In this document: positions 1 through 53,462 of the stretch, piece after piece
Layout: each line of letters opens with the position of its first letter
Position numbering within the stretch: position 1 is the stretch's first letter
Assembly: GCA_018062385.1 (NCBI GenBank)
Contig: JAGOSI010000001.1
Span: forward strand, 5,904-69,903
DNA from: Minisyncoccota bacterium
GTDB lineage: Bacteria > Patescibacteriota > Minisyncoccia > Phycocordibacterales > UBA918
Direction of reading: 5' to 3'
Length of the DNA stretch: 64,000 nucleotides
Position numbers and translations under genes: made by a program
The notes under the pieces: generated by a model
Database searches by the model: none
What the model saw: only the letters and a program-made list of their open reading frames with translations
What the model was told of the DNA's origin: nothing

Positions 1-504
1 TCTGAAACAGCTAAGCCAAAAGTTGGTAATCGTTTACCACTAAAAGCGATTCCAGTTGGTACTTTTGTATACAACGTGGAATTAAAACCAGGTGCTGGTG
101 CAAAAATTGCTCGCTCTGCTGGTAATCACATTGAAGTCGTTGCCCAAGACGTGAATTACACTCTACTAAAGATGCCTTCAACCGAAATTCGTAAAGTAAT
201 TTCAACTGCTTGGGCATCAATCGGTTCAGTATCAAACGAAGAACACCGCTTGGTGGATCTCGGTAAAGCTGGTCGCGCTCGTCATATGGGACTTCGTCCA
301 AAGACTCGTGGTTCAGCTAAAAACGCTGTGGATCACCCACATGGAGGAGGTGAAGGTCGCGCTCCAAGAGGACATCGCCGTGCTCGTACAAAGCAAGGTC
401 GTCCAACTGGAAAGGGACAAAAGACTCGTTCTCCAAAGAAGCATTCAAATGTATTTATTGTCGAACGTCGGAAGCCAGGTCGGCTGATGGGCGGGAAGAG
501 ATAA
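1..504 (+). CDS. rplB: 50S ribosomal protein L2, C-terminal part (5' end lies upstream of window)
   Basis: Frame 1 from position 1 reads ...IPVGTFVYNVELKPGAGAKIARSAG...HPHGGGEGRAP... to stop at 502-504; conserved L2 C-terminal motifs. Confidence 0.9.
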   Translation, partial: SETAKPKVGNRLPLKAIPVGTFVYNVELKPGAGAKIARSAGNHIEVVAQDVNYTLLKMPSTEIRKVISTAWASIGSVSNEEHRLVDLGKAGRARHMGLRPKTRGSAKNAVDHPHGGGEGRAPRGHRRARTKQGRPTGKGQKTRSPKKHSNVFIVERRKPGRLMGGKR

Positions 505-512
505 ACAAAAAA

Positions 513-541
513 GTCACTACGCAAGTAGTGACTTTTTTGTT
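513..541 (+). terminator. Rho-independent terminator after rplB (gtcactac-gcaa-gtagtgac + T-run)
   Basis: Perfect 8-bp stem, 4-nt loop, followed by TTTTTTGTTT; unexpectedly ends the operon before rpsS. Confidence 0.7.
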
Positions 542-4640: not shown

Positions 4641-5849
4641 ATGAATGTTTTTGCCGATAATCGCTTCAGTCTAATATTTATCGTTAGTCTTTTGTCAGCT
4701 TTGTTATTTTTAGTCACCCCATCATTTTCTCAAGCCCAAGTGCCAGGAGATTGTGGCTTCACTGCTACTTTGGAGCTGGGTTCCGACAGTGAGGAGGTGC
4801 GTTGTTTGCAAAAGTATCTCAATGCCAGCGGTTTTGTAATTGCTGAGAGTGGCCCAGGTTCGGTTGGAAAGGAGACTTCTATGTTTCGAGCTCTTACTAA
4901 AGAAGCATTGATTAAATGGCAACAATCGCACAATATTACCCCGGCCACTGGCGTGTTTGGTGAAAAATCAAAAGCTACTTACTTACTTGATTTGGTTAAA
5001 AAATTAAGTAATGAACAAGGAGGTCAAAATGTGGTAGTAACAGACCCCGTACCAGATACTGAAGACACCGTCAGTGCTGATATACCCGACACTGATTCTG
5101 AGGCTAAGAATGACGCTGAGCGACAGATCACTTCTGCAATGGTAATGATCCTAGATACTTATGACGAACTAGACAATGTTCGTGATGATGATCCAGATGA
5201 GGCTGTAAATATTGAAGAAGATACACGTGAATCATTAAAGGATCTGTTAGAATCAATAAAGACTTATTTTGACGGTGACTATGACGAAGCCGGAAGTTTG
5301 GCCGAGGATGTTTTAAATGACGCTACCGATTCCTTTGAAGACGCTGGTGGAGAATCAGCTAAAAGCAAAGCTGAGGATATACTTGATGATGTTGAGGATT
5401 TCTATGATGATCTAGAAGAACTTATAGCTGATGCAGAGGATCAAAATGAAGATGTGGGCGACGCCCCAGATCTTTTAGAAGAAGCTCGAGATTTATTAGA
5501 TGAAGCTGAGGAAGCCTTTGCTGATGGTGTCTATAAGCAAGCCATCAGCGATGCTAATGACGCTGAAGATTTACTAAATGAGGCCGAAGATGAGATTGAT
5601 TTAGTGTCTGATCGTGACGCGGAGAAGTTGGTGAAGGAAGTTTGGGATCAATTTGACGAAGCGGAAGATGAATTATCTGAAGCTGAGACCAATGGTGAAG
5701 ATATTGACGAAGCGGAAGAATTACTTGATGATGCCAAGCGCAATCTAAAGAAGGCTGATATGGCGCTTGATGAAGAGGATTACTCCGAAGCCGTTGATTT
5801 GGCAGAAGAAGCCGAAGAATTGATTGAAGAAGCTTTGGATGAGCTGTAA
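4641..5849 (+). CDS. secreted protein with peptidoglycan-binding-like domain and long acidic (D/E-rich) repetitive C-terminal region
   Basis: Signal peptide ...PSFSQAQ; segment CLQKYLNASGF...GVFGEKSKATY resembles a PG_binding_1 domain; ~250 aa tail dominated by D/E with repeated EAEE/DEAE motifs. Confidence 0.6.
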   Translation: MNVFADNRFSLIFIVSLLSALLFLVTPSFSQAQVPGDCGFTATLELGSDSEEVRCLQKYLNASGFVIAESGPGSVGKETSMFRALTKEALIKWQQSHNITPATGVFGEKSKATYLLDLVKKLSNEQGGQNVVVTDPVPDTEDTVSADIPDTDSEAKNDAERQITSAMVMILDTYDELDNVRDDDPDEAVNIEEDTRESLKDLLESIKTYFDGDYDEAGSLAEDVLNDATDSFEDAGGESAKSKAEDILDDVEDFYDDLEELIADAEDQNEDVGDAPDLLEEARDLLDEAEEAFADGVYKQAISDANDAEDLLNEAEDEIDLVSDRDAEKLVKEVWDQFDEAEDELSEAETNGEDIDEAEELLDDAKRNLKKADMALDEEDYSEAVDLAEEAEELIEEALDEL

Positions 5850-5879
5850 AAAACTGAATTTAACCAAAAAATATCAGAA

Positions 5880-5916
5880 AACTGAGTTTTCCAGAGGGTA
5901 AACTCGGTTTTTTTCA
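5880..5916 (+). terminator. Rho-independent terminator after acidic-protein gene
   Basis: aactgagttt...aaactcggtt 10-bp stem (one G-U), followed by T7. Confidence 0.65.
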
Positions 5917-5937
5917 TCGGCAATATGTACGTTTTCA

Positions 5938-5966
5938 TTGACTTTTCCGTCTTTTTTCGGTACTCT
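5938..5966 (+). promoter_or_regulatory. sigma70-like promoter of rpsS sub-operon: TTGACT-N17-TACTCT
   Basis: -35 TTGACT at 5938-5943, 17-nt spacer, -10 TACTCT at 5961-5966; the module TTTTTCGGTACT(C/G)TAGC recurs upstream of rpsN at 10011-10031. Confidence 0.6.
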
Positions 5967-6154
5967 AGCCAAGTTCCAACCTCAGTGAGGAGTTAAGAAT
6001 CTATCTAAATTCTTAGTGTCACCTCACAAAAAGTTAAGAAGAAGTTGATTTATAAAGCTTTGAGAACCTCTGTTAAGGACGGCCGTTACCTTTCTTTACA
6101 AGAGGTTCTCAAAAAACGCATTATCAATGCGTTATTATTCGTATAGTTAAATGT

Positions 6155-6496
6155 ATGTCACGATCACTCTATAAAGGACCATACGTAGATGAGAAGTTGC
6201 TGAAGAAGATCGCCGGTAAAAAACCCGGAGAGAGTGTTGTCATCAAGACTTGGGCGCGCGATAGCGTAATTGCTCCGGAAATGGTTGGCTTCACGTTTGG
6301 TGTCCATAACGGTAAAGAACATATTCCAGTTTCTGTTTCTGAAGAAATGGTAGGTCACCGTTTAGGAGAATTTTCACCAACTAAGAAATTCCATCGTCAC
6401 GGAGGTAAGATGCAAAAAGAACTTGAGCAGAAGAAGAAGCAAGCTGAAATTGATGCTGCAAAAGCCGCTAAATCAGCTTCCTCTAGTAAAAAGTAG
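6155..6496 (+). CDS. rpsS: 30S ribosomal protein S19 with Lys/Ala-rich C-terminal extension
   Basis: [18 protein letters not shown]...[19 protein letters not shown] matches S19; extra C-terminal [20 protein letters not shown]. Confidence 0.95.
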
Positions 6497-6499
6497 GAT

Positions 6500-6823
6500 A
6501 TGAAAGCAATTCTAAAAAATTACCGTCAATCACCTCGTAAAGTACGTTTGGTGGCTGATGTGGTACGCGGAAAGAAAGTTACCGAAGCCCTTGCCATGCT
6601 CCGCTTTGTTGATAAGCGAGCGTCTGGTCCATTTGCTAAGGTTATCGAATCAGCTGTAGCCAATGCGGTACAAGCTGGTAAATCAACCGATCGTCTTTTT
6701 ATTAAGAAAGTAGCAGTTGATAAGGGAACGGTTTTGAAGAGATTCATGCCTCGTGCTCGCGGTTCTGCGTCACGCATTAATAAGCGAAATAGTCACATCT
6801 CAGTCGAACTCGGCGAGAAATAA
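6500..6823 (+). CDS. rplV: 50S ribosomal protein L22
   Basis: Sequence similarity to L22 (SPRKVRLVADVVRGK...); position after rpsS. Confidence 0.95.
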   Translation: MKAILKNYRQSPRKVRLVADVVRGKKVTEALAMLRFVDKRASGPFAKVIESAVANAVQAGKSTDRLFIKKVAVDKGTVLKRFMPRARGSASRINKRNSHISVELGEK

Positions 6824-6828
6824 TACCT

Positions 6829-7551
6829 ATGACACACGTAGCCCATCCATATGTTCAACGTATCGGGGTCAATCGCGATTGGAAGAGTCGTTGGTTTACT
6901 ACTGATCCAAAGAAGTTTCGTGAATATCTACGCTCTGATGCCGAAATTCGACGTCTTCTTGAGAAGAAGTTGAAAGGTATGTCAGTTGATAAGGTTGAAA
7001 TTGAACGCAACCAAAAAGATATTCGCATTATTATTAAAACTGCTCGTCCTGGACTTATTATTGGTCGTAGTGGAGAAGGAGTAATCAAGCTCAAGAAAGA
7101 GGTTGATATGTTACTTCGAACACAAAAGCTAACCAATAAACCAGAAATTAAGCTTGATATTGAAGAAGTTCGTTCTCCAGAATCAAGTGCTAACATTGTT
7201 GGACAAATGATTGCTGAAGGACTTGAGAAACGTCTCACTTTCCGTCGCGTCATGAAGCAAACGATTGAAAAAGTTATGGCCAATCGCGATGTAGAAGGAG
7301 TACGTATTATTCTTTCTGGTCGTCTTGGTGGAGCAGATATGGCACGAAAGGAGGAATTAAAGAAGGGTCGAATTCCTCTCCAAACTCTACGCGCAGATAT
7401 TGATTTTGCTCGTGTTACTGCTCGTCTACCTTATGGTGCGATTGGTATTAAGGTTTGGATTTATCGCGGACAAGTTTTTGCTGATCGTAAAAGCGGTCAA
7501 GCAGAAGCCGCTCCACGACAAAGTCAGTCTCGGGCACCTCGTAAAGGTTAA
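6829..7551 (+). CDS. rpsC: 30S ribosomal protein S3
   Basis: HPYVQRIGVNRDWKSRWF..., KH domain and conserved S3 C-terminal domain; synteny. Confidence 0.95.
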   Translation: MTHVAHPYVQRIGVNRDWKSRWFTTDPKKFREYLRSDAEIRRLLEKKLKGMSVDKVEIERNQKDIRIIIKTARPGLIIGRSGEGVIKLKKEVDMLLRTQKLTNKPEIKLDIEEVRSPESSANIVGQMIAEGLEKRLTFRRVMKQTIEKVMANRDVEGVRIILSGRLGGADMARKEELKKGRIPLQTLRADIDFARVTARLPYGAIGIKVWIYRGQVFADRKSGQAEAAPRQSQSRAPRKG

Positions 7552-7562
7552 TTAAAATACAT

Positions 7563-7997
7563 ATGTTATTTCCGAAAAAAGTAAAGCACCGTAAATGGCA
7601 AGTCGGTAGACAAAGCGAAGCTAAAAGAAACACTCCTGATACTCGAGGTATCACTGTGTCTTTTGGTACCTTTGGTCTTAAGGCGACTTCAGCATCACGT
7701 GTGCGTTCCAATCAAATTGAAGCGGCTCGTCGTGTAATCTCACGAACTATCGGCAAGACCGGAAAAATTTGGATCCGTATTTTCCCCGACAAGCCAATGA
7801 CCAAGAAAGCGGCTGAAGTACCGATGGGTAAGGGTAAAGGTGATTTGGATCATTATGTGTTTGAAGTTCATCCTGGACGTATTCTCTTTGAGGTACAAGG
7901 TGTCTCTGAAGAGGTAGCACGTGAAGCTTTTCGAAAGGCCTGCGCCAAGCTTCCATTACAAGGTAAGCTCGTTGGTCGCGAGGAAACGACAGCGTAA
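7563..7997 (+). CDS. rplP: 50S ribosomal protein L16
   Basis: [16 protein letters not shown]...; synteny. Confidence 0.95.
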
Positions 7998-8008
7998 TAT
8001 ACTTACTT

Positions 8009-8209
8009 ATGATTAAAATGTCAGACATTAGAAATAAGTCGGAAGCAGAGCTGGTTGAGTTGGTAAATACTGCTCGCGAAACAGTTCGTGCTGAACGCTT
8101 TAAAGATAAATTCAGTCGCAAGGCTGGTATCATCAATGGTGCCAAGAAGGAAATTGCTCAGGCACTAACCGAATTAACAACTCGTCGTCGTAACAATGAC
8201 GCTAAATAA
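8009..8209 (+). CDS. rpmC: 50S ribosomal protein L29 (start may be the second ATG at 8018)
   Basis: ...SEAELVELVNTARETVRAERFK...; stop TAA overlaps rpsQ start (TAATG). Confidence 0.9.
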   Translation: MIKMSDIRNKSEAELVELVNTARETVRAERFKDKFSRKAGIINGAKKEIAQALTELTTRRRNNDAK

Positions 8210-8475
8210 TGAGTATGACTACTGAAAATACAACAACTGTATCAAATCGTCGTACCTTGCGTGGAACTGTAGTTTCAACCAAAATGCAAGACACTATAAC
8301 GGTAGCTGTCGAGCGTTATGTGAAGCATCCAAAATACAAGAAGTTCATGCGACGCACGAAGAAGTTTTTGGTACATGATGCAGGTAATACTGCGAAAGAA
8401 GGAGATGTGGTCGATATTAAGGAATCACGCCCGTTGTCAAAACGAAAGCGTTTCGAACTTGTAAAGACAAAATAG
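8209..8475 (+). CDS. rpsQ: 30S ribosomal protein S17
   Basis: ...RRTLRGTVVSTKMQDTITVAVER...; synteny. Confidence 0.95.
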   Translation: MSMTTENTTTVSNRRTLRGTVVSTKMQDTITVAVERYVKHPKYKKFMRRTKKFLVHDAGNTAKEGDVVDIKESRPLSKRKRFELVKTK

Positions 8476-8476
8476 T

Positions 8477-8848
8477 ATGATCCAGCCACAAACAATTGTT
8501 AAGATCACTGATAACTCTGGCGGTAAGATCGGTCGAGTATTTAAAGTACTTGGTGGATCAAAAAAGCGCTATGCAGAATTAGGTGAAGTCGTGGTGCTTT
8601 CAGTACAAGTTGCTGAGCCACGAAAGCAGATCAAGAAGAAAGATGTTGTGTACGGAGTGATTGTGCGTCAGCGCAAGCCTTTCCGTCGAAAGGATGGTTC
8701 ATACGTAAGTTTTGATGATAACGCCGTTGTTATTATCGACAAGGTAAAGAAGGAGCCTCGCGCTAACCGCGTGTTTGGTCCGATTCCTCGTGAACTATCA
8801 GAAGCTGGTTATCAGAAAATAGTCTCTCTAGCACCAGAGGTGGTATAA
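8477..8848 (+). CDS. rplN: 50S ribosomal protein L14
   Basis: MIQPQTIVKITDNSGGK...; synteny. Confidence 0.95.
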   Translation: MIQPQTIVKITDNSGGKIGRVFKVLGGSKKRYAELGEVVVLSVQVAEPRKQIKKKDVVYGVIVRQRKPFRRKDGSYVSFDDNAVVIIDKVKKEPRANRVFGPIPRELSEAGYQKIVSLAPEVV

Positions 8849-8869
8849 AGAGTCGTTAATGATATAGCT

Positions 8870-9181
8870 ATGAAAATTAGAAAAGGAGATACCGTGCAGA
8901 TCATTGCCGGAAAAGATAAAGGTAAGACAGGATCAGTTTTGACTGCCTTGCCAAGAACCGAACAAGTAATTATCGAAGGAATGAATGTGGTGAAGAAGCA
9001 CCAAAAGAATCGTCGCACTCGTTCACAAGGTCAAATTATCGAAAAAAGTTTACCAATCCACGTATCTAATGTTGCTTTACTAGAAGGCGACAAGCCAGTA
9101 CGTGTGGGATACAGCATTGAAGGTGAGGGTGAGAAACGAAAGAAAGTGCGTGTTGCCCGCCCAAGCGGTAAGAAACTATAA
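8870..9181 (+). CDS. rplX: 50S ribosomal protein L24
   Basis: MKIRKGDTVQIIAGKDKGKTG... KOW motif; synteny. Confidence 0.95.
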   Translation: MKIRKGDTVQIIAGKDKGKTGSVLTALPRTEQVIIEGMNVVKKHQKNRRTRSQGQIIEKSLPIHVSNVALLEGDKPVRVGYSIEGEGEKRKKVRVARPSGKKL

Positions 9182-9182
9182 T

Positions 9183-9719
9183 ATGGAAACAACACAAACT
9201 CGCATCAAAAATGCCTATGGCGCTATGAAGACAGACTTTGGTTATACCAATGTCATGCAAGCTCCAAGAGTAGAAAAGGTAGTGGTATCAGTGGGTACTG
9301 GCCGTGTTCAGGACAAAGCGAAAATTGCTTTAATCCAAGATCGTCTAGCTCAAATCACTGGTCAAAAACCATCACCGCGACCAGCGAAGCAATCAATTGC
9401 TTCATTCAAGCTACGTGAGGGTGATATCATTGGTTACCAAATAACTCTACGTGGTGCTCGCATGATGCACTTCCTAGATAAGTTGATCAACCTAGCTTTG
9501 CCACAAACTCGCGACTTCCGCGGACTAAAGGTAACAGCGATTGATGAAATGGGTAACTACACTATTGGTATTAAGGAACATACGATTTTCCCAGAGTGTG
9601 GTGACGAAGAAATCAGAGACGTTTTTTCATTAGCGATTACGATTGTAACTACCGCTAGTGACAAGAAAGAGGCCGAAGCTTTCTTGCGTCATATTGGTTT
9701 ACCTTTGCAAAACAAATAA
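9183..9719 (+). CDS. rplE: 50S ribosomal protein L5 (start at METTQTRIKNAY; the listed ORF begins at an upstream in-frame ATG inside rplX)
   Basis: L5 signature sequence; ATG at 9183 directly after the rplX stop. Confidence 0.9.
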   Translation: METTQTRIKNAYGAMKTDFGYTNVMQAPRVEKVVVSVGTGRVQDKAKIALIQDRLAQITGQKPSPRPAKQSIASFKLREGDIIGYQITLRGARMMHFLDKLINLALPQTRDFRGLKVTAIDEMGNYTIGIKEHTIFPECGDEEIRDVFSLAITIVTTASDKKEAEAFLRHIGLPLQNK

Positions 9720-9743
9720 TTGATTGTAAGAGAAATAATAAAA

Positions 9744-9775
9744 CCCCCGAAAAACTTCGTTTTTCGGGGGTTTTT
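9744..9775 (+). terminator. Rho-independent terminator after rplE (cccccgaaaaac-ttc-gtttttcggggg + T5)
   Basis: 12-bp perfect stem and T-run; separates rplE from rpsN, which are normally co-transcribed. Confidence 0.75.
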
Positions 9776-9998
9776 GAAGTGTGATTAAATTTAATATTTT
9801 CTGTCAGTTTTATAAAATTTTCCGATTAATCCCATTACAAAAAATAAAAGTACTAACAGAAGTAACCAAAATGGAGCCAAAATCATATCTTTCACTATAA
9901 ATTCCTCCTAATTTAAAAATAAATCATAATCTCTACTTGTGTATCTATAATTATAATGACATTTTTTAAAGTTTTGTCCACAGACACCTATTAGTAGG

Positions 9999-10027
9999 TT
10001 GACTTTATCCTTATTTTTCGGTACTGT
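9999..10027 (+). promoter_or_regulatory. sigma70-like promoter of rpsN-secY sub-operon: TTGACT-N17-TACTGT
   Basis: -35 TTGACT 9999-10004, 17-nt spacer, -10 TACTGT 10022-10027; near-identical to the promoter at 5938-5966. Confidence 0.6.
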
Positions 10028-10156
10028 AGCGGGCAAGGCGACATTATAGGTCACCAACAAAAAACCTATAGTTCGCTGCCCAGTCTTTGACTCGGCGATT
10101 ATCAGGGGGTAAGTCACGACAAACTACGTGATACTATCCCATAAACAAACACAAAA

Positions 10157-10342
10157 GTGGCACGAAAATCAGTAAAGCTTCGCGCGATGCGCGAACCAAA
10201 GTTTGCTTGCCAAGTCGTAAGACGATGTAAGCTGTGTGGCCGAAAGCGAGGATATATGCGAGATTTTGATACTTGCCGTATCTGTTTCCGCGAGTTGGCC
10301 CACGAAGGACATATACCAGGAGTTAAGAAATCATCATGGTAG
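10157..10342 (+). CDS. rpsN: 30S ribosomal protein S14 type Z (zinc-binding, 61 aa), GTG start
   Basis: [16 protein letters not shown]...[38 protein letters not shown] with CxxC...CxxC. Confidence 0.95.
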
Positions 10343-10734
10343 GAGATATTATTGGCGACATGATCATTCGACTGAAGAACGCTGGAGTAGTAGGCAAGAA
10401 ACAAGTAGAAATGCCATATTCTAAGCTTCGTCATGCAGTCGCGAACAAGTTAGTCGCAGCCGGATATATTGAAAAGGCCGAGCAACAAGGGAAGAAAGAT
10501 AAGGTACAGAAGTTACTAGTGGTAACTCTAAAGTATGAGAACGGACGACATCGAATTGATGGCGTAAAGCGTATCTCAAAACCAGGTCGCCGCTTGTACA
10601 CAAAGGTCGCAGATATTCACAGAGTTAAGTTTGGTAAAGGGCATATGCTACTTTCTACACCAGCTGGCATCCTCACAAACGAGGAAGCTAAAGCGCAAAA
10701 TGTAGGAGGTGAACAGCTCTTCATCATTTGGTAA
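10336..10734 (+). CDS. rpsH: 30S ribosomal protein S8
   Basis: Conserved S8 sequence; 7-nt overlap with rpsN. Confidence 0.95.
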
Positions 10735-10738
10735 AAGT

Positions 10739-11269
10739 ATGAGTCGATTAGGAAAACAACCAGTAACCATTCCAACCGGAGTCACAGTCACATGTGATGG
10801 TGGATTACTAAAGGTGACGGGACCAAAAGGAACTCTAGAGAAGCCAGTCCGACCAGATGTAAATATTGCTATTGACGGCAATACTATTACTTTGACACCA
10901 AATAAGACGGTTAATGCACCAGCTTTGTGGGGAACCTACGCTGCTCACGTGCGTAATATGATCAAAGGTGTAACTGAAGGCTTTGTTAAGATCCTAGAAA
11001 TCGAAGGTGTAGGATACCGCGCTGAAGTAAAGGGAAGTGAGATTGTTCTAAATATGGGCTACTCACATCCAGTACCACTAGCAATTCCAGCTGGAATTAC
11101 TGCTTTGGTAGAAAAAAGTGTCGTCACTCTTAGTGGTATCGATAAAGAGCTTTTGGGTCAGTTTGCAGCAAATGTACGCAAGGTACGCAAGCCAGAACCA
11201 TACAAAGGTAAGGGTATTCGTTATCGTGGAGAGTTTATTATTCGCAAACAAGGTAAGAAGGCTGCGTAA
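10739..11269 (+). CDS. rplF: 50S ribosomal protein L6 (start at MSRLGKQPVTIP)
   Basis: L6 N-terminus MSRxGKxP.TIP; ORF track begins 30 nt upstream at an in-frame ATG overlapping rpsH. Confidence 0.9.
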   Translation: MSRLGKQPVTIPTGVTVTCDGGLLKVTGPKGTLEKPVRPDVNIAIDGNTITLTPNKTVNAPALWGTYAAHVRNMIKGVTEGFVKILEIEGVGYRAEVKGSEIVLNMGYSHPVPLAIPAGITALVEKSVVTLSGIDKELLGQFAANVRKVRKPEPYKGKGIRYRGEFIIRKQGKKAA

Positions 11270-11290
11270 GCCCATAATTCGATTTGATAT

Positions 11291-11641
11291 ATGGAAAAAA
11301 CACAGTATAAAACAAGTAAGCGAGTATCTCGCCATAATCGGATTAGGGCTAAGGTGTCGGGTACGGCAGAACGCCCACGCCTAGCTATCTTCCGCAGTAA
11401 CCGCTTTGTCTACGCCCAGCTAATAGACGACGTTACTGGTAAGACACTAGCAGCTTCTGATTCACGTAAGGTTGAAGGTAAGACTTTGACTGAACGCGCT
11501 CAGGCGGTTGGTACAGATATTGCTAGTAAGGCTAAAACTATCGGTGTCAATACTATTGTATTTGACCGTGGTGGTTTTCGTTACCAAGGAGCCGTGGCAG
11601 CGCTAGCTGATAGTGCTCGAACTGGAGGCTTGGTATTCTAA
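11291..11641 (+). CDS. rplR: 50S ribosomal protein L18
   Basis: ...RPRLAIFRSNRFVYAQLIDD...FDRGGFRYQGAVAALADSARTGGLVF. Confidence 0.95.
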   Translation: MEKTQYKTSKRVSRHNRIRAKVSGTAERPRLAIFRSNRFVYAQLIDDVTGKTLAASDSRKVEGKTLTERAQAVGTDIASKAKTIGVNTIVFDRGGFRYQGAVAALADSARTGGLVF

Positions 11642-11692
11642 ATTAATAAACGAAAGTATTGCTAAATTCATTACTTTCATAAGAAAAAAATA

Positions 11693-12310
11693 ATGTCAGA
11701 AACAAAACAGCAGGAAGCTACAACTGGCGCTACGCCAGAGCTTGAGGTGAAAACCTCTACCGATGCACCCGCTGTCGCTGGTTCAGAAAGAACTGAACGC
11801 GGTCGACGGGGACAAGGAGGAGCAGACAAAAGAAATCAACGTCGTCCACGACGTGGCGCTGGTCGTCCAGAACGCGCACGTCCAGAATTTGACCAAAAAA
11901 TCATTAGTATTCGTCGCGTAACTCGTGTTATGGCTGGAGGTCGTCGTTTCAGTTTCTCAGTAGCGATGGTGATTGGTGATAAGAAAGGAAAGGTGGGAGT
12001 TGGTATTGGAAAAGCTGGTGATACTCAAGCCGCAATCGAAAAAGCGATTCGTGATGCTAAGAAGAACATGATTATCGTACCAATGGACAAGGAGAGCCGT
12101 ATTCCACACGATGTACATACAAAGTATGTTTCAAGTGAGGTAATGATTATGCCGGCACCTGGTCGTGGACTAGTAGCAGGATCTTCAGTACGTACCGTTC
12201 TTGAACACGCTGGTGTGAAGGATGTGACTGCCAAAATCTTCTCACGTAGTAAGAACAAACTTAACAATGCTCGCGCCGCTGTCGAAGCGCTTAAACTTCT
12301 AAGGAAATAA
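11693..12310 (+). CDS. rpsE: 30S ribosomal protein S5 with Arg/Gly-rich N-terminal extension
   Basis: S5 dsRBD and C-terminal domain (...IISIRRVTRVMAGGRRFSF...); ~60-aa basic N-terminal extension. Confidence 0.95.
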   Translation: MSETKQQEATTGATPELEVKTSTDAPAVAGSERTERGRRGQGGADKRNQRRPRRGAGRPERARPEFDQKIISIRRVTRVMAGGRRFSFSVAMVIGDKKGKVGVGIGKAGDTQAAIEKAIRDAKKNMIIVPMDKESRIPHDVHTKYVSSEVMIMPAPGRGLVAGSSVRTVLEHAGVKDVTAKIFSRSKNKLNNARAAVEALKLLRK

Positions 12311-12315
12311 TTAGT

Positions 12316-12768
12316 ATGCAGTTACATGAACTAAAACCAACTTCTCCAAGAAAGACCGCCAAAAGAATCGGTCTTGGTGGAAAGCGTGGTAAGACTTCTG
12401 GTCGTGGAGGAAAGGGTCAGACCGCTCGTACTGGTAACAGTATGCGTCCAGAAATGCGCGACCAGATCAAGAAGCTTCCAAAGCTTCGTGGGCACGGTAA
12501 AAATCGCGCTCGCACTGTAAATAGTGAAAGAGAAGAAATCGCTGTAGTAAATCTATCTCGTTTAGAGACAGTATTTAACGCTGGTGATACAGTGTCTCCA
12601 AAGACTCTGGTGGCAAATAAGGTCATCAGTGCAGTAGGTAGACGTGTACCAAAGGTAAAGATCTTAGCTACAGGAGAAATCACTAAGAAATTAACTATTG
12701 AAAACTGTCAGATGTCAGAGACAGCTAAGGCAAAAATCGAAAAAGCTGGTGGAATTGTTACAAAATAG
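12316..12768 (+). CDS. rplO: 50S ribosomal protein L15 (directly follows rpsE; no L30 gene)
   Basis: MQLHELKPTSPRKTAKRIGLGGKRGKTSGRGGKGQ... Confidence 0.95.
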   Translation: MQLHELKPTSPRKTAKRIGLGGKRGKTSGRGGKGQTARTGNSMRPEMRDQIKKLPKLRGHGKNRARTVNSEREEIAVVNLSRLETVFNAGDTVSPKTLVANKVISAVGRRVPKVKILATGEITKKLTIENCQMSETAKAKIEKAGGIVTK

Positions 12769-12783
12769 GTACTATAGTAATGT

Positions 12784-14055
12784 ATGCAAAAATTCTTCCG
12801 CAAACTTACTCTAGTCTTCACCGAACCGGCGATTAGAAATCGAGTCTTATTTATCCTTGGAGCACTGGTCATTTTTAGAATGCTAGCGTCAATTCCGATT
12901 CCAGGAGTTGATCAAGCGGTTTTGCAACAATTTTTTGCCAACAACCAATTCCTAGGATTACTCAACATCTTCTCTGGTGGTGGATTGGCCAACTTGTCAA
13001 TCGTAATGCTTGGTGTAGGGCCGTTTATTACAGCGGCTATCATCATGCAGTTGATGACGGTGATGTCACCAAAAATCAAGAGTATGCACACTGAGGAGGG
13101 TGAAGCTGGACGTGCAAAGTTTACTCAAATCAGCCGACTTTTGACTTTACCTTTGGCTGTTCTACAAGGTTTTGGCTTCCTAACTCTTCTACAGAGTCAG
13201 GGGGTTATCTCTGGACTTTCTACCTTTGATTTCGTAGTTAATGTGATCTTGGTGGTAGCTGGTTCTATGCTCCTTATGTGGATCGGTGAATTAATCACCG
13301 AATACGGTATCGGGAACGGTGTTTCAATTATCATCTTTGCTGGTATCGTAGCAACTTTGCCATCGACCGTTAGTCAATTGGCTTTTACTTTTGATCCGTC
13401 ACAATTACCATTGTATATAGGATTCGGCTTTGTTGCCCTCTTCATTATTTATGCGGTGGTATTCATGACTGAAGCTGAGCGTCCGGTACCGATTACTTAC
13501 GCCAAACAAAGTCGAGGAGGAGCAACTTATGGAGGTAGTTCTTCATACTTACCACTTCGTCTCAATCAGGCTGGAGTGATTCCGATCATCTTCGCGCTAT
13601 CGATCTTGCTCTTCCCGCAAATGGTGCTAAACATTCTTTCAGCCTTCAATTTGTCTTGGGTGGCAGGAGCTAATGAGACAGTGACTTCTATCCTTAACAA
13701 TCAGCTGATCTACGGTGCTATCTACTTTGTCTTGGTTTTCCTATTCACTTTCTTCTATACTGCAGTAACTTTCGACCCAGAGAATGTGGCTAAGAACTTA
13801 CAAAGAAATGGTGCTTATATCCCCGGTATTCGTCCAGGTAACCATACTTCAGAATATCTTGGTGGTTTGATCACTCGTTTAACTCTTGTTGGTGCTATCT
13901 TCCTTGGCTTTGTAGCAGTGTTACCGATTGGTATGCAAATGGCAACCGGTATTGCAGCTCTAGCGATTGGGGGTACAGCGGTGTTGATTGTGGTGCAGGT
14001 AGTTCTAGACTTGATTCGTCGACTTGATGCTCAGATATCACTTCGAGAGTACTAG
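12784..14055 (+). CDS. secY: preprotein translocase subunit SecY
   Basis: 10-TM protein with SecY motifs; follows rplO. Confidence 0.95.
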   Translation: MQKFFRKLTLVFTEPAIRNRVLFILGALVIFRMLASIPIPGVDQAVLQQFFANNQFLGLLNIFSGGGLANLSIVMLGVGPFITAAIIMQLMTVMSPKIKSMHTEEGEAGRAKFTQISRLLTLPLAVLQGFGFLTLLQSQGVISGLSTFDFVVNVILVVAGSMLLMWIGELITEYGIGNGVSIIIFAGIVATLPSTVSQLAFTFDPSQLPLYIGFGFVALFIIYAVVFMTEAERPVPITYAKQSRGGATYGGSSSYLPLRLNQAGVIPIIFALSILLFPQMVLNILSAFNLSWVAGANETVTSILNNQLIYGAIYFVLVFLFTFFYTAVTFDPENVAKNLQRNGAYIPGIRPGNHTSEYLGGLITRLTLVGAIFLGFVAVLPIGMQMATGIAALAIGGTAVLIVVQVVLDLIRRLDAQISLREY

Positions 14056-14070
14056 AGGTACATTGAAAAC

Positions 14071-14120
14071 AAAAAGCCAGAAAAAACCAGTCCCTAGGGA
14101 CTGGTTTTTCTGGCTTTTTG
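14071..14120. terminator. Bidirectional terminator between secY (+) and cmk-like gene (-)
   Basis: Long perfect palindrome gccagaaaaaaccagtccc-tag-ggactggtttttctggc flanked by A- and T-runs. Confidence 0.75.
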
Positions 14121-14759: not shown

Positions 14760-14816
14760 GATAGTAGCATATCATAAAAAGCGGTTGCGAATGAGGCAAA
14801 AAACTGATACTCTCGG

Positions 14817-15395
14817 TTGACTATGGAATATAAAACTAAATATAAAAGTATTGTTTTTATGGGTAAAATCGCCTCTGGCAAGGGCACTCAAGCCAATGCT
14901 ATCAGTAGTCATTTTGGTGGAATTATTTATTCAAACGGTAATAAAGTCCGCGAGACGGCTCAATTGCCAACTGTTTTTGGCAAGAAAATCAAAGAAATTT
15001 ACGAAACTGGATTATTAATTCCAGAGTGGGTCGCTTCTTATTGGATGACGCACGCGATTGTTACTCAGTTTACTGATGAACGAGTGATTTTTGAGGGGGT
15101 AGCTAAGAAACCAAATGAAGCTGAACTTTTTCATGAAATCCATGAAATGATTGGTCGTCCATATATAGTTTTTAATTTAGATGTCAGTGATGAAGAAGTT
15201 CATGCGCGGAGTGCTATGCGTGCCCGTGATGTGGTTGATAATCCTAAAGCAGTAGATACCCGCTTGGCAGAATATCAAACCTACACCACCAAGTCTATCG
15301 AATTTTTTAGAGACAAAGGCACCTTGATTGATATTGATGGCTCTTTAGATTCAAAAACCGTTCAAGAAAAAATCTTTAAGTATTTAATAAATTAA
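14817..15395 (+). CDS. adenylate kinase family paralog with degenerate motifs
   Basis: P-loop GKIASGKGTQA present; DGFPR replaced by EGVAKK; LID arginines partly retained. Confidence 0.55.
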   Translation: MTMEYKTKYKSIVFMGKIASGKGTQANAISSHFGGIIYSNGNKVRETAQLPTVFGKKIKEIYETGLLIPEWVASYWMTHAIVTQFTDERVIFEGVAKKPNEAELFHEIHEMIGRPYIVFNLDVSDEEVHARSAMRARDVVDNPKAVDTRLAEYQTYTTKSIEFFRDKGTLIDIDGSLDSKTVQEKIFKYLIN

Positions 15396-20675: not shown

Positions 20676-20972
20676 AAAACATTTAATTGACACACTATTT
20701 AATTACTAAGTAGTGTGTTTTTCCATTTATCAATTGCCAAAATAAATACTTAGTAGTACCATACTAAAGGAACCACATTAACGTATGTTCCGATTAAACA
20801 TTTATGCAGGGTCGCCAGCAGTCTCAAGAGGCCATGAGAATTCGCAAGAAATTTCAGACACCGCTTGGAAATGGTACCCACCTAGAGATTCTAGGAGCAT
20901 ACGTGGTGGTTCCCTTGAAAGTACGCCTCTTACGAGGTGTTTTTTCATGCCTTTTGGAGTAATATAAGTAGT

Positions 20973-21356
20973 ATGAAGACTTACTTCGGCCTAATTTTAT
21001 TCACCTCTTGGTTTTTGTTGGCCGTGCTCCATACTTTCTTCACAGTGTCTTGGTTGTACTGGTATTACACTTGGCTCGATATTCCCATGCATTTGTTTGG
21101 TGGTTTTTTAGTTATGACAACTTGGTTTTATTTTCGTAGTAAAAAGCCTTGGTTGATGGAGTTGTCTAAAAAACCGATCTTTAATCCGATATTTTTATTT
21201 ATTTTAATTATTATTGGTTGGGAAATTTTTCAATTAACTCTCGGTAAGCCTATTTCCAATAATTATGTCAATGACACCAGAACTGATTTGGTGATCGGCT
21301 TGATCGGTGGACTATTAAGTTATTTTTTCTTTTCTTCACGTACAATAGGAAAATAA
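20973..21356 (+). CDS. hypothetical small membrane protein (4 predicted TM helices, Trp/Phe-rich)
   Basis: ORF 20937-21356; likely start MKTYFGL; preceded by a terminator-like hairpin. Confidence 0.5.
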   Translation: MKTYFGLILFTSWFLLAVLHTFFTVSWLYWYYTWLDIPMHLFGGFLVMTTWFYFRSKKPWLMELSKKPIFNPIFLFILIIIGWEIFQLTLGKPISNNYVNDTRTDLVIGLIGGLLSYFFFSSRTIGK

Positions 21357-44947: not shown

Positions 44948-44968
44948 TGCTCACATTGTAGCATTTTG

Positions 44969-45041
44969 TCCGCCAACTTGGACTCGAACCAAGGACCACA
45001 GAGGTATAAGCTCTGCGCTCTACCAACTGAGCTATTGGCGG
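44969..45041 (-). tRNA. tRNA with anticodon UAU (Ile-type, AUA-reading), C1-G72, A73, no encoded CCA
   Basis: Minus strand CCGCCAA-TA-GCTCAGTTGGTAGAGC-G-CAGAG-CTTATAC-CTCTG-TGGTC-CTTGG-TTCGAGT-CCAAG-TTGGCGG-A; cloverleaf parsed by eye. Confidence 0.65.
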
Positions 45042-45157
45042 AACACTCTTTATTTAGAGTGTTCAAACTATACCGCGATTTTGCGACTAACTCAATATAC
45101 AATAGGTCTTGCAATTTTTTTAAAATAAGATTAAATGTAAACAGTTTCAACCAGGAA

Positions 45158-45180
45158 AGGAGGTGATCCGCGTCCCCTGC
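45158..45180 (-). other. 16S rRNA 3'-terminus-like fragment (GGATCACCTCCTTTC, anti-SD region) on the same strand ~120 nt upstream of the tRNA; no rRNA gene attached
   Basis: Minus strand reads ...aaggtacaacaggcaggggacgcGGATCACCTCCTTTCctgg, resembling the 16S end ...AAGGTAGCCGTAGGGGAACCTGCGGCTGGATCACCTCCTTTCT. Confidence 0.4.
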
Positions 45181-53257: not shown

Positions 53258-53263
53258 GGGGTG

Positions 53264-53351
53264 CGGAGGATGTGAGATTCGAACTCACGGACCCGTTTAA
53301 AGGTCGACAGTTTAGTAAACTGTTGGTTTAAACCACTCACCCAATCCTCCT
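53264..53351 (-). tRNA. type II (long variable arm) tRNA, Ser-like (G73), apparent anticodon ACU in loop UUACUAA, non-canonical
   Basis: Minus strand GGAGGAT-TG-GGT-GAGTGGTTTAA-ACC-A-ACAGT-TTACTAA-ACTGT-CGACCTTTAAACGGGTC-CGTGAG/GTGAG-TTCGAAT-CTCAC-ATCCTCC-G. Confidence 0.5.
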
Positions 53352-53373
53352 TATTTATATTGCTCAACTCTTT

Positions 53374-53462
53374 GGCGGAGACGCAGGGATTCGAACCCTG
53401 GAGGGTTTTAACACCCTACTTCGTTAGCAGTGAAGCGCTTTCGACCACTCAGCCACGTCTCC
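53374..53462 (-). tRNA. tRNA-Ser(GCU), type II, CCA encoded
   Basis: Minus strand GGAGACG-TG-GCT-GAGTGGTCGAA-AGC-G-CTTCA-CTGCTAA-CGAAG-TAGGGTGTTAAAACCCTCC-AGGG-TTCGAAT-CCCT-GCGTCTCC-G-CCA. Confidence 0.8.

Follow-up and report, generated by a model that had tools for sequence, protein, structure and literature searches.

The stretch of DNA analysed here (the window) comprised 64,000 nucleotides (nt) of a Parcubacteria/Paceibacteria-type genome (contig JAGOSI010000001.1, positions 5,904 to 69,903 of the forward strand) and carried the ribosomal protein (r-protein) genes of the S10-spc super-operon in three separate pieces (Table 1). The first piece ended with rplB; the second, the rpsS operon, coded for S19, L22, S3, L16, L29, S17, L14, L24 and L5 only; the third started with rpsN, a gene of the short zinc type with the start codon GUG, and ended with secY. 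Gene identities were assigned by Pfam scans, which detected no rpmD (L30) between rpsE and rplO (window 11693-12768). Between the end of rplB and rpsS were 5.65 kb with six unrelated genes and two terminators, whereas the spacer between rplE and rpsN was 437 nt. An initial annotation of the window had divided the cluster into the units rplB, rpsS-rplE and rpsN-secY, and this division was found to hold clade-wide, except that rplB was not adjacent to rpsS, the gene directly before the rpsS promoter being one with PG_binding_1 and DUF4398 domains. The reading developed below, with a probability of about 0.75, is that the units have housekeeping promoters and terminators of their own, that the rpsN leader contains an operator for S8, and that the rpsS leader contains a separate conserved RNA.

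The arrangement was compared with 80 related loci (labelled L001 etc.), obtained from a genome scan with L5 and belonging without exception to metagenome-assembled genomes of Patescibacteria (Parcubacteria, Paceibacteria, Kaiserbacteria and Nomurabacteria), with L5 identities of 58-93%. Both the rplB-rpsS and the rplE-rpsN junctions were open in all 80 relatives. The first gap measured 250-2680 nt where rplB could be seen and exceeded about 2.9 kb in most others, and the second measured 101-3540 nt (median 945), often with open reading frames (ORFs) on either strand inside. The strong terminator that the initial annotation had placed between rplE and rpsN was confirmed as a hairpin of 16 pairs (7 GC; dG -23.3 kcal/mol, z -5.1), located 21 nt past the rplE stop codon; it has the GC-rich stem-loop and trailing U-run of an intrinsic (Rho-independent) terminator, and since an A-run precedes and UUUUU follows the hairpin it can work in both directions. 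A GC hairpin with a T-run was present within 130 nt past rplE in 59 of the 81 loci. The hairpin with a U-run that ends the gene upstream of rpsS stops 24 nt before the rpsS promoter. Transcripts would presumably terminate at these sites. The small minus-strand ORF convergent on the post-rplE terminator was considered as the cause of the split and rejected, as it was not conserved in the relatives. Because open junctions, promoters (see below) and post-rplE terminators recur among the relatives, the three-unit layout is a trait of the clade and not a peculiarity of one genome; the S10-spc super-operon is permanently broken in this clade after rplB and after rplE, with unrelated genes inserted at both breaks.

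The promoters of the rpsS and rpsN operons were both of the form TTGACT-N17-TACTNT, which had exactly two matches in the window, both on the plus strand (expected number 0.07; none of 100 shuffles reached two). Thus, the two promoters described in the initial annotation as TTGACT-N17-TACT(C/G)T, with the same -35 hexamer and the same 17-nt spacing, were recovered and were the only ones of their kind; the 17-mer TTTTTCGGTACTNTAGC said to be shared by them was indeed exact at both, at nt 5953-5969 and 10014-10030, that is, 2-3 nt away from the positions first given (5955-5971 and 10011-10027). Over 32 nt, the two modules were identical at 26 bases. Regarding sigma-70-type features, the -35 hexamer agreed with TTGACA at 5 of 6 positions at both sites, the spacer was 17 nt, and the -10 had the form TAnnnT; transcripts were predicted to start at about nt 5971-5974 (rpsS) and 10033-10035 (rpsN). 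The pattern TTGAC[AT]-N16/17-TAnnnT was then searched in 891 kb of the relatives' sequence, and 68 of the 73 loci with sufficient sequence had it within 450 nt upstream of rpsS, while 49 of 68 had it upstream of rpsN. Of the 166 matches, 117 were at these two places, compared with 24-40 matches in total in shuffled sequence. The consensus of the 68 rpsS promoters was TTGACw-17-TAcTaT-AGC, and TG occurred at -15/-14 in 31 of 43 rpsN promoters. Similar sites preceded rpmI-rplT (TTGACA-17-TATAGT), tRNA-Ile (TTGAGT-17-TATAGT) and adk (TTGCGA-17-TACTCT) in the window, and genes inserted in relatives. The choice left by the initial annotation between a general and an r-protein-specific promoter therefore falls on the former: judged by their sequence, both are strong, ordinary housekeeping promoters of the sigma-70 type, and they would be nearly identical because both lie near the consensus of strong promoters in this clade (TTGACTTT, a spacer rich in T, (T/C)GG and TACTNT). 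Two further sites were seen on the plus strand. At nt 14771-14819, adk has its annotated start, a TTG at 14817, 3 nt past its promoter-like sequence, and the mRNA may be leaderless or the start mis-called. At nt 20687-20936, a promoter-like TTGACA-18-TAGTGT is followed by about 220 nt, apparently non-coding and without a match in Rfam, ahead of an ORF (20937-21356) without a match in Pfam.

The leaders of both operons were long and rich in hairpins, as initially annotated (about 182 nt for rpsS and 123 nt for rpsN, both with z about -5), and the two hairpins then quoted were real (nt 6059-6113 and 6115-6133). The rpsN leader folded with a dG of -38.9 and a z of -5.05 (nt 10034-10162), its three hairpins (P1 to P3) were common to close relatives, and P2 covaried. 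The third hairpin, P3, was a mimic of the S8 site in helix 21 of 16S rRNA. The primary S8 site is a helix interrupted by seven conserved nucleotides, with the triples A595-(A596-U644) and (G597-C643)-U641 and an invariant A642 (PMC4176348), and S8 represses the spc mRNA through the same surface as that used in rRNA binding (PMC4176348, PMC3616713). The rpsN P3 in the window reads GGGGGU-AAGU-CACG-(loop)-CGUG-AUACU-AUCCC (GGGGGUAAGUCACG...CGUGAUACUAUCCC), the core being A10111, A10112, G10113 and U10114 opposite A10131, U10132, A10133, C10134 and U10135, whereas nt 585-655 of E. coli 16S rRNA read …GUUAAGUCAGAUG…CAUCUGAUACUGGC…; UAAGUCA and GAUACU are common to the two (16S nt 594-600 and 639-644). 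The initially suggested comparison of the leaders with known S8 structures thus yielded a core equal to that of helix 21, in a leader for which Rfam gave no family at the gathering level and only generic hairpin or terminator look-alikes at E<=10.

Conservation of the rpsN P3 was assessed in three alignments (A1, A3 and A4) and with a covariance model of the hairpin (R1). The equivalents of A596, G597, U598, A640, U641, A642 and C643 were invariant in 14 leaders and nearly so in 31. In the 14-leader alignment, 95% of the cells paired and 7 of 12 pairs showed compensatory changes, a level reached by none of 500 shuffles, with slid controls at 25-52%; for 31 distinct sequences the values were 94% and 11 of 12 pairs. 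The flanking helices were kept by pairing while being free in sequence, as in the S8 site. RNAalifold predicted the rpsN P3 independently, with covariation at 595:644 (AU in 10 sequences and GC in 4), and U641-to-A variants were seen in three relatives. R1 matched 31 of the 80 loci and the window, always on the plus strand upstream of rpsN; elsewhere in the 945 kb it had a single marginal match, and none of its 32 matches was at rplE. A hand-written descriptor of the S8 core recovered about the same loci, plus L036. Between the end of the P3 stem and the GUG start of rpsN were 17 nt in the window and 15-22 nt in about 20 genomes. The S8 encoded in the window (nt 10336-10734) keeps the motifs RPG..Y, S-T and GGE, which we take, by comparison with E. 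coli S8, to be those that contact RNA. In view of the helix 21 mimicry, the suggestion that this leader is autoregulatory is well supported, and the rpsN P3 is probably an S8 operator working like that of the E. coli spc operon.

The rpsS leader was folded with a dG of -52 and a z of -5.0 (nt 5973-6160). At its predicted transcript start sits the conserved 5' block (C)CGUUCCAACCUC, and its third hairpin (P3), long and with an apical CCGUUA, was analysed in alignment A2, with a covariance model (R2) and by a metagenome scan. CCGUUA was present in the leaders of all 47 relatives with a long rpsS leader; it capped a hairpin of about 20 base pairs (bp) in 34 of them, and in the other 13 CCGUUA(A) formed the loop of a short hairpin or lay between A-runs. 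In A2, 87.9% of the cells paired and 14 of 20 pairs were compensatory, which none of 500 shuffles reached (slid controls 45-66%). Matches to R2 were found only upstream of rpsS, with 58-79 bits on the plus strand and 17-32 bits on the reverse strand. In the metagenome scan, a pattern of 21 bases matched 85 stretches, 80 of which were fetched, and rpsS was found 39-245 nt downstream in 77; the other three contigs ended before rpsS could appear. Thus, the long CCGUUA hairpin is known from 35 genomes and 77 metagenome contigs, 112 sequences in all, each time upstream of rpsS. Downstream of it, P4 of the close relatives consists of covarying stems followed by AUUUAUUCGU, resembling an attenuator.

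As to what the rpsS leader recognises, exclusive association with r-protein genes is a criterion for calling r-protein leaders (PMC7247131), and an autoregulatory function, also proposed initially, is plausible in the light of this conserved, covarying RNA. S19 is the default candidate for the ligand, a guess made by analogy because rpsS is the closest gene ("closest gene" rule for r-protein leaders). Attempts to name the ligand from gene association offered no discriminating case, since rpsS came first in every informative metagenome contig, and protein features did not help, lengths and tails being alike whether or not a genome has the motif. S19 (nt 6155-6496) ends in a Lys- and Ala-rich C-terminal tail of about 20 residues, which is conserved clade-wide. 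No Rfam 15 family matched the leader at the gathering level, and at E<=10 only generic look-alikes appeared. The only matches of words such as CCGUUAC, GGCCGUUACC and CGUUCCAACCUC to E. coli rRNA (23S nt 96, 1906 and 1954; 16S nt 480, 976 and 1206; 5S nt 9) were short and at chance level and were discarded. R2 had no match in the set of E. coli 16S, 23S and 5S rRNA (L081), a result of little weight as R1 also missed the genuine helix 21 there. Readings of the leader as boxA-like, tRNA-like or 5S-like were dropped, as conservation and structure were not consistent. No support was seen for pairing between the 5' end and either arm of P3 (mean z about 0 and -0.5), and support for pairing with the stretch just 5' of P3 was moderate in some relatives (mean z -1.0). 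It was also noted that the conserved 5' end GGGUUCCAACC (nt 5973-5983) is complementary to GGUUGGGAAC (nt 6052-6067), which overlaps the base of the long hairpin; the same complementarity occurs in L016, L102, L104, L148 and others, and hints at two mutually exclusive folds, strongly so in some relatives (z down to -4).

Leaders of other types were seen among the relatives. In at least 11 relatives, a module of about 90 nt has been inserted immediately ahead of the rpsS start codon, and at least three have it at the corresponding place before rpsN, with none in the window; it consists of the hairpin GTTCCAGGA…TCGGAAC followed by TAAATTCTAAATAGTCGTTACACTCCTTTTATCATTT (for example, L003 at about nt 2745-2830, L005 at about 2880-2967 and 9960-10046, L016 at about 8645-8731, and L047 at about 8800-8884). 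In the distant L046, L050, L057, L061, L063, L066, L075-L078 and L080, the leaders of both rpsS and rpsN are only 30-40 nt, made of a 5' GC-rich hairpin, a U-run and the start codon, which could be a 5'-end stabiliser or an attenuator. Because distant relatives carry such short leaders at both genes, the long regulatory leaders seem to have been added within the clade.

Table 1. Features of the r-protein region, with coordinates in the window (strand: +, forward; -, reverse;., both directions)
Feature	Position	Strand	Details and basis
rplB (L2), 3' part, last gene of the upstream r-protein unit	76-504	+	ORF end at 504; L2 signature HPHGGGEG at 334
Bidirectional intrinsic terminator directly after rplB	505-540	.	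Perfect, ACAAAAAAGTCACTAC-GCAA-GTAGTGACTTTTTTGT; read from sequence
Unrelated gene (PG_binding_1 + DUF4398) next before the rpsS promoter	4641-5849	+	Pfam scan
Terminator-like hairpin + U-run ending the gene upstream of rpsS	5878-5914	+	Fold of 5850-5937
rpsS promoter	5938-5966	+	-35 TTGACT 5938-5943, 17-nt spacer, -10 TACTCT 5961-5966
rpsS leader, ~182 nt	5973-6154	+	Conserved 5' block GUUCCAACCUC 5973-5983; variable P2 hairpin 5985-6027
rpsS leader P3, long hairpin	6062-6110	+	Invariant apical CCGUUA 6083-6088; alignment A2, R2, metagenome scan
rpsS leader P4, attenuator-like	6115-6143	+	Short GC hairpin 6115-6133, then AUUAUUCGUA; ~12 nt before rpsS start codon
Operon rpsS-rplV-rpsC-rplP-rpmC-rpsQ-rplN-rplX-rplE	6155-9719	+	Pfam scans; rplE 9183-9719
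Strong bidirectional intrinsic terminator after rplE	9740-9774	.	Hairpin fold
Hypothetical hydrophobic 34-codon ORF, convergent on the post-rplE terminator	9791-9895	-	Translation; AGGAGG 8 nt upstream
rpsN promoter	9999-10027	+	-35 TTGACT 9999-10004, 17-nt spacer, -10 TACTGT 10022-10027
rpsN leader, ~123 nt	10034-10156	+	P1 10037-10077, P2 10080-10094, then P3
rpsN leader P3, S8-site mimic (16S rRNA helix 21)	10106-10140	+	Alignments A1, A3, A4; E. coli 16S 585-655
Operon rpsN (Zn type)-rpsH-rplF-rplR-rpsE-rplO-secY	10157-14055	+	Pfam scan
Bidirectional terminator after secY	14082-14109	.	Hairpin

Elsewhere in the window, two observations concerned tRNA genes. On the minus strand, nt 45155-45169 read GGATCACCTCCTTTC, an exact copy of the bacterial 16S rRNA 3' terminus (chance 0.01), about 110 nt upstream of tRNA-Ile(TAT) (44968-45041, minus strand); no 16S gene is present in the window, and the site could be what is left of an rRNA operon, or an anti-Shine-Dalgarno-like element. 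ARAGORN predicted two adjacent tRNA-Ser genes (53263-53350 and 53373-53462, both on the minus strand), one with the unusual anticodon ACT beside one with the normal GCT.

According to the favoured reading, each block downstream of a break would be its own unit, in which a TTGACT-17-TACTNT promoter restarts transcription, the four terminators in Table 1 would close the units, and each restart would have acquired its own regulatory leader. In the rpsN unit, surplus S8, the product of the second gene, would bind P3; because only 15-22 nt separate this hairpin from the start codon, S8 sitting on it should prevent loading of the 30S subunit, so that rpsN would be repressed directly and the downstream genes via translational coupling, that is, the spc logic of E. 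coli moved to the 5' untranslated region (UTR). The rpsS leader would most likely sense one of the nine proteins of its operon and lower expression, either by attenuation at P4 or by occlusion of the start region. A bolder version, in which the break-up of the super-operon in Paceibacteria came with new unit-specific feedback RNAs, namely the relocated S8 mimic in the rpsN 5' UTR and an undescribed RNA class upstream of rpsS (with a CCGUUA loop and no obvious rRNA mimicry, controlling nine r-protein genes, and perhaps acting as a protein-dependent transcription attenuator or a sensor of something other than an r-protein), is put forward tentatively, at slightly less than even odds.

Several findings weigh against the favoured reading. 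At the promoters, the -10 hexamers TACTCT and TACTGT agree with TATAAT at only 3 of 6 positions (A2 and T6 kept). In the rpsN leader, about 12 relatives carry an insert of 60-170 nt between P3 and the start codon, which misfits simple steric occlusion; P3 is missing from roughly half of the 68 relatives that have rpsN, namely from those more distantly related; 595/644 is G/C instead of A/U in 4-8 relatives, a triple not described for rRNA; and the mimicry was judged against E. coli helix 21 and the published consensus, not the 16S rRNA of the lineage itself. In the rpsS leader, the U-tract after P4 is interrupted, no antiterminator is evident, the suspected alternative pairing of the 5' terminus has a weak signal in the window (z -0.4), and no counterpart of the leader was found in E. 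coli 16S, 23S or 5S rRNA.

Alternative explanations were considered for the promoters as well as for the leaders. That TTTTTCGGTACTNTAGC serves as operator for a transcription factor dedicated to co-regulating both r-protein operons is suggested by the extension of the identity past both hexamers and by the recurrence of the T-rich spacer and of AGC after the -10 in relatives. However, in L001, the nearest relative, the rpsS promoter has TTTTACAGTACTCT in its spacer, with the -35, the spacing and the -10 kept, so that the 17-mer identity is not conserved; furthermore, the 17-mer is not palindromic, TTGACTTT and the TG or CG before the -10 also occur at unrelated promoters in the loci and the window, and the only two other matches in the window have 3 mismatches each, which is the chance level. 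Such an operator is therefore quite improbable. Near-identity within one genome could also mean that the modules stem from a promoter cassette that is mobile or was duplicated recently, but dozens of relatives with proteins at 58-93% identity have both promoters in orthologous positions, their flanks are unrelated with the similarity stopping about 3 nt past the -10, and no repeat termini are present, which makes this origin extremely improbable.

For the rpsN leader, the similarity of P3 to the S8 site might be coincidental and the hairpin a generic stabiliser or the target of another factor. Binding of S8 is a prediction, and the inserts and the G...C variant mentioned above are compatible with such a view. 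Nevertheless, all seven to nine core nucleotides equal those of the published S8 site and are invariant, the flanking helices covary freely, the element was found only upstream of the operon that encodes S8, and U641-to-A, the change seen in three relatives, is also present in natural helices 21, such as that of Bacillus; a coincidence is thus improbable, and P3 is preferably read as an S8 operator. The case of the rpsS leader is less clear-cut. Its long hairpin might be a processing site for RNase III or another enzyme, an element of mRNA stability, or an aptamer for a small molecule or another trans-acting ligand, instead of an r-protein sensor. The near-perfect 20-bp helix would suit RNase III, E. 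coli rRNA holds no look-alike beyond words at chance level, and no protein of the operon differs between genomes with and without the motif. The invariant loop of 6-7 nt and the conserved 5' block, on the other hand, point to sequence-specific recognition, and the motif stands solely upstream of the r-protein operon in 112 independent sequences. A function other than r-protein sensing is accordingly regarded as rather unlikely, while having a real share of the probability, and the rpsS leader is provisionally taken as an r-protein sensor.

If the assignment of the rpsN P3 is right, this hairpin would be the first operator for S8 outside Gammaproteobacteria, where a 2024 review stated the regulation of spc to be unknown, and S8-directed rRNA mimicry would have been re-invented or relocated upon a change in operon structure; in any event, the leader is a concrete and testable candidate in a distant phylum and at a different position. 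The rpsS leader is a well-supported orphan RNA motif with at least 112 examples, from a lineage with almost no characterised regulation. In addition, the syntenic r-protein block is widely used in binning and phylogenomics, and the fixed breaks, inserted genes and terminators alter what "one operon" means.

The closest known system is the S8 operator of the E. coli spc operon (Cerretti 1988, Merianos 2004; surveyed in PMC3616713), likewise an mRNA hairpin copying helix 21's internal loop. Both it and the rpsN P3 have the equivalents of A595/A596/G597/U598 and A640-U644 between two Watson-Crick helices, both lie in the S8-encoding transcript near a start codon, and the same outcome is expected of both, namely translational feedback that spreads by coupling. 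They differ in that the E. coli site overlaps the start of rplE, the third cistron, and is almost wholly coding, whereas the rpsN P3 is in a true 5' UTR before the first cistron of a separately promoted operon, with rplE outside the unit and behind a terminator. The E. coli-type site is confined to Gammaproteobacteria, and there is no homology between the two past the mimicked core. With 16S helix 21 itself, the rpsN P3 shares the identical core UAAGUCA...GAUACU, the odd-numbered internal loop and the invariant equivalent of A642; in P3, however, a loop of 5-8 nt closes the upper helix after 4-5 bp in place of a long extension, the lower helix has 5 bp, and 595:644 covaries like a Watson-Crick pair, being AU or GC. 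As for the rpsS leader, the E. coli S10 leader (L4 attenuation and translational control) is also long and structured, stands ahead of the rpsS-rplV-rpsC-rplP-rpmC-rpsQ block, and has, as here, a hairpin resembling a terminator shortly before the first gene. Yet the present operon starts at rpsS instead of rpsJ and is without L4, the two leaders are not similar in sequence or structure, and attenuation in the rpsS leader is only presumed. The candidate r-protein leaders of Eckert & Weinberg 2020, whose list does not include the motif, differ from it in lineage (Patescibacteria here), first gene (rpsS here) and structure; nevertheless, these leaders, such as the Alphaproteobacteria L2 leader upstream of rplB-rpsS-rplV-rpsC, also covary, are also found solely before r-protein genes of the S10 cluster, and have had their ligands assigned by the same "closest gene" rule that was applied to the rpsS leader.

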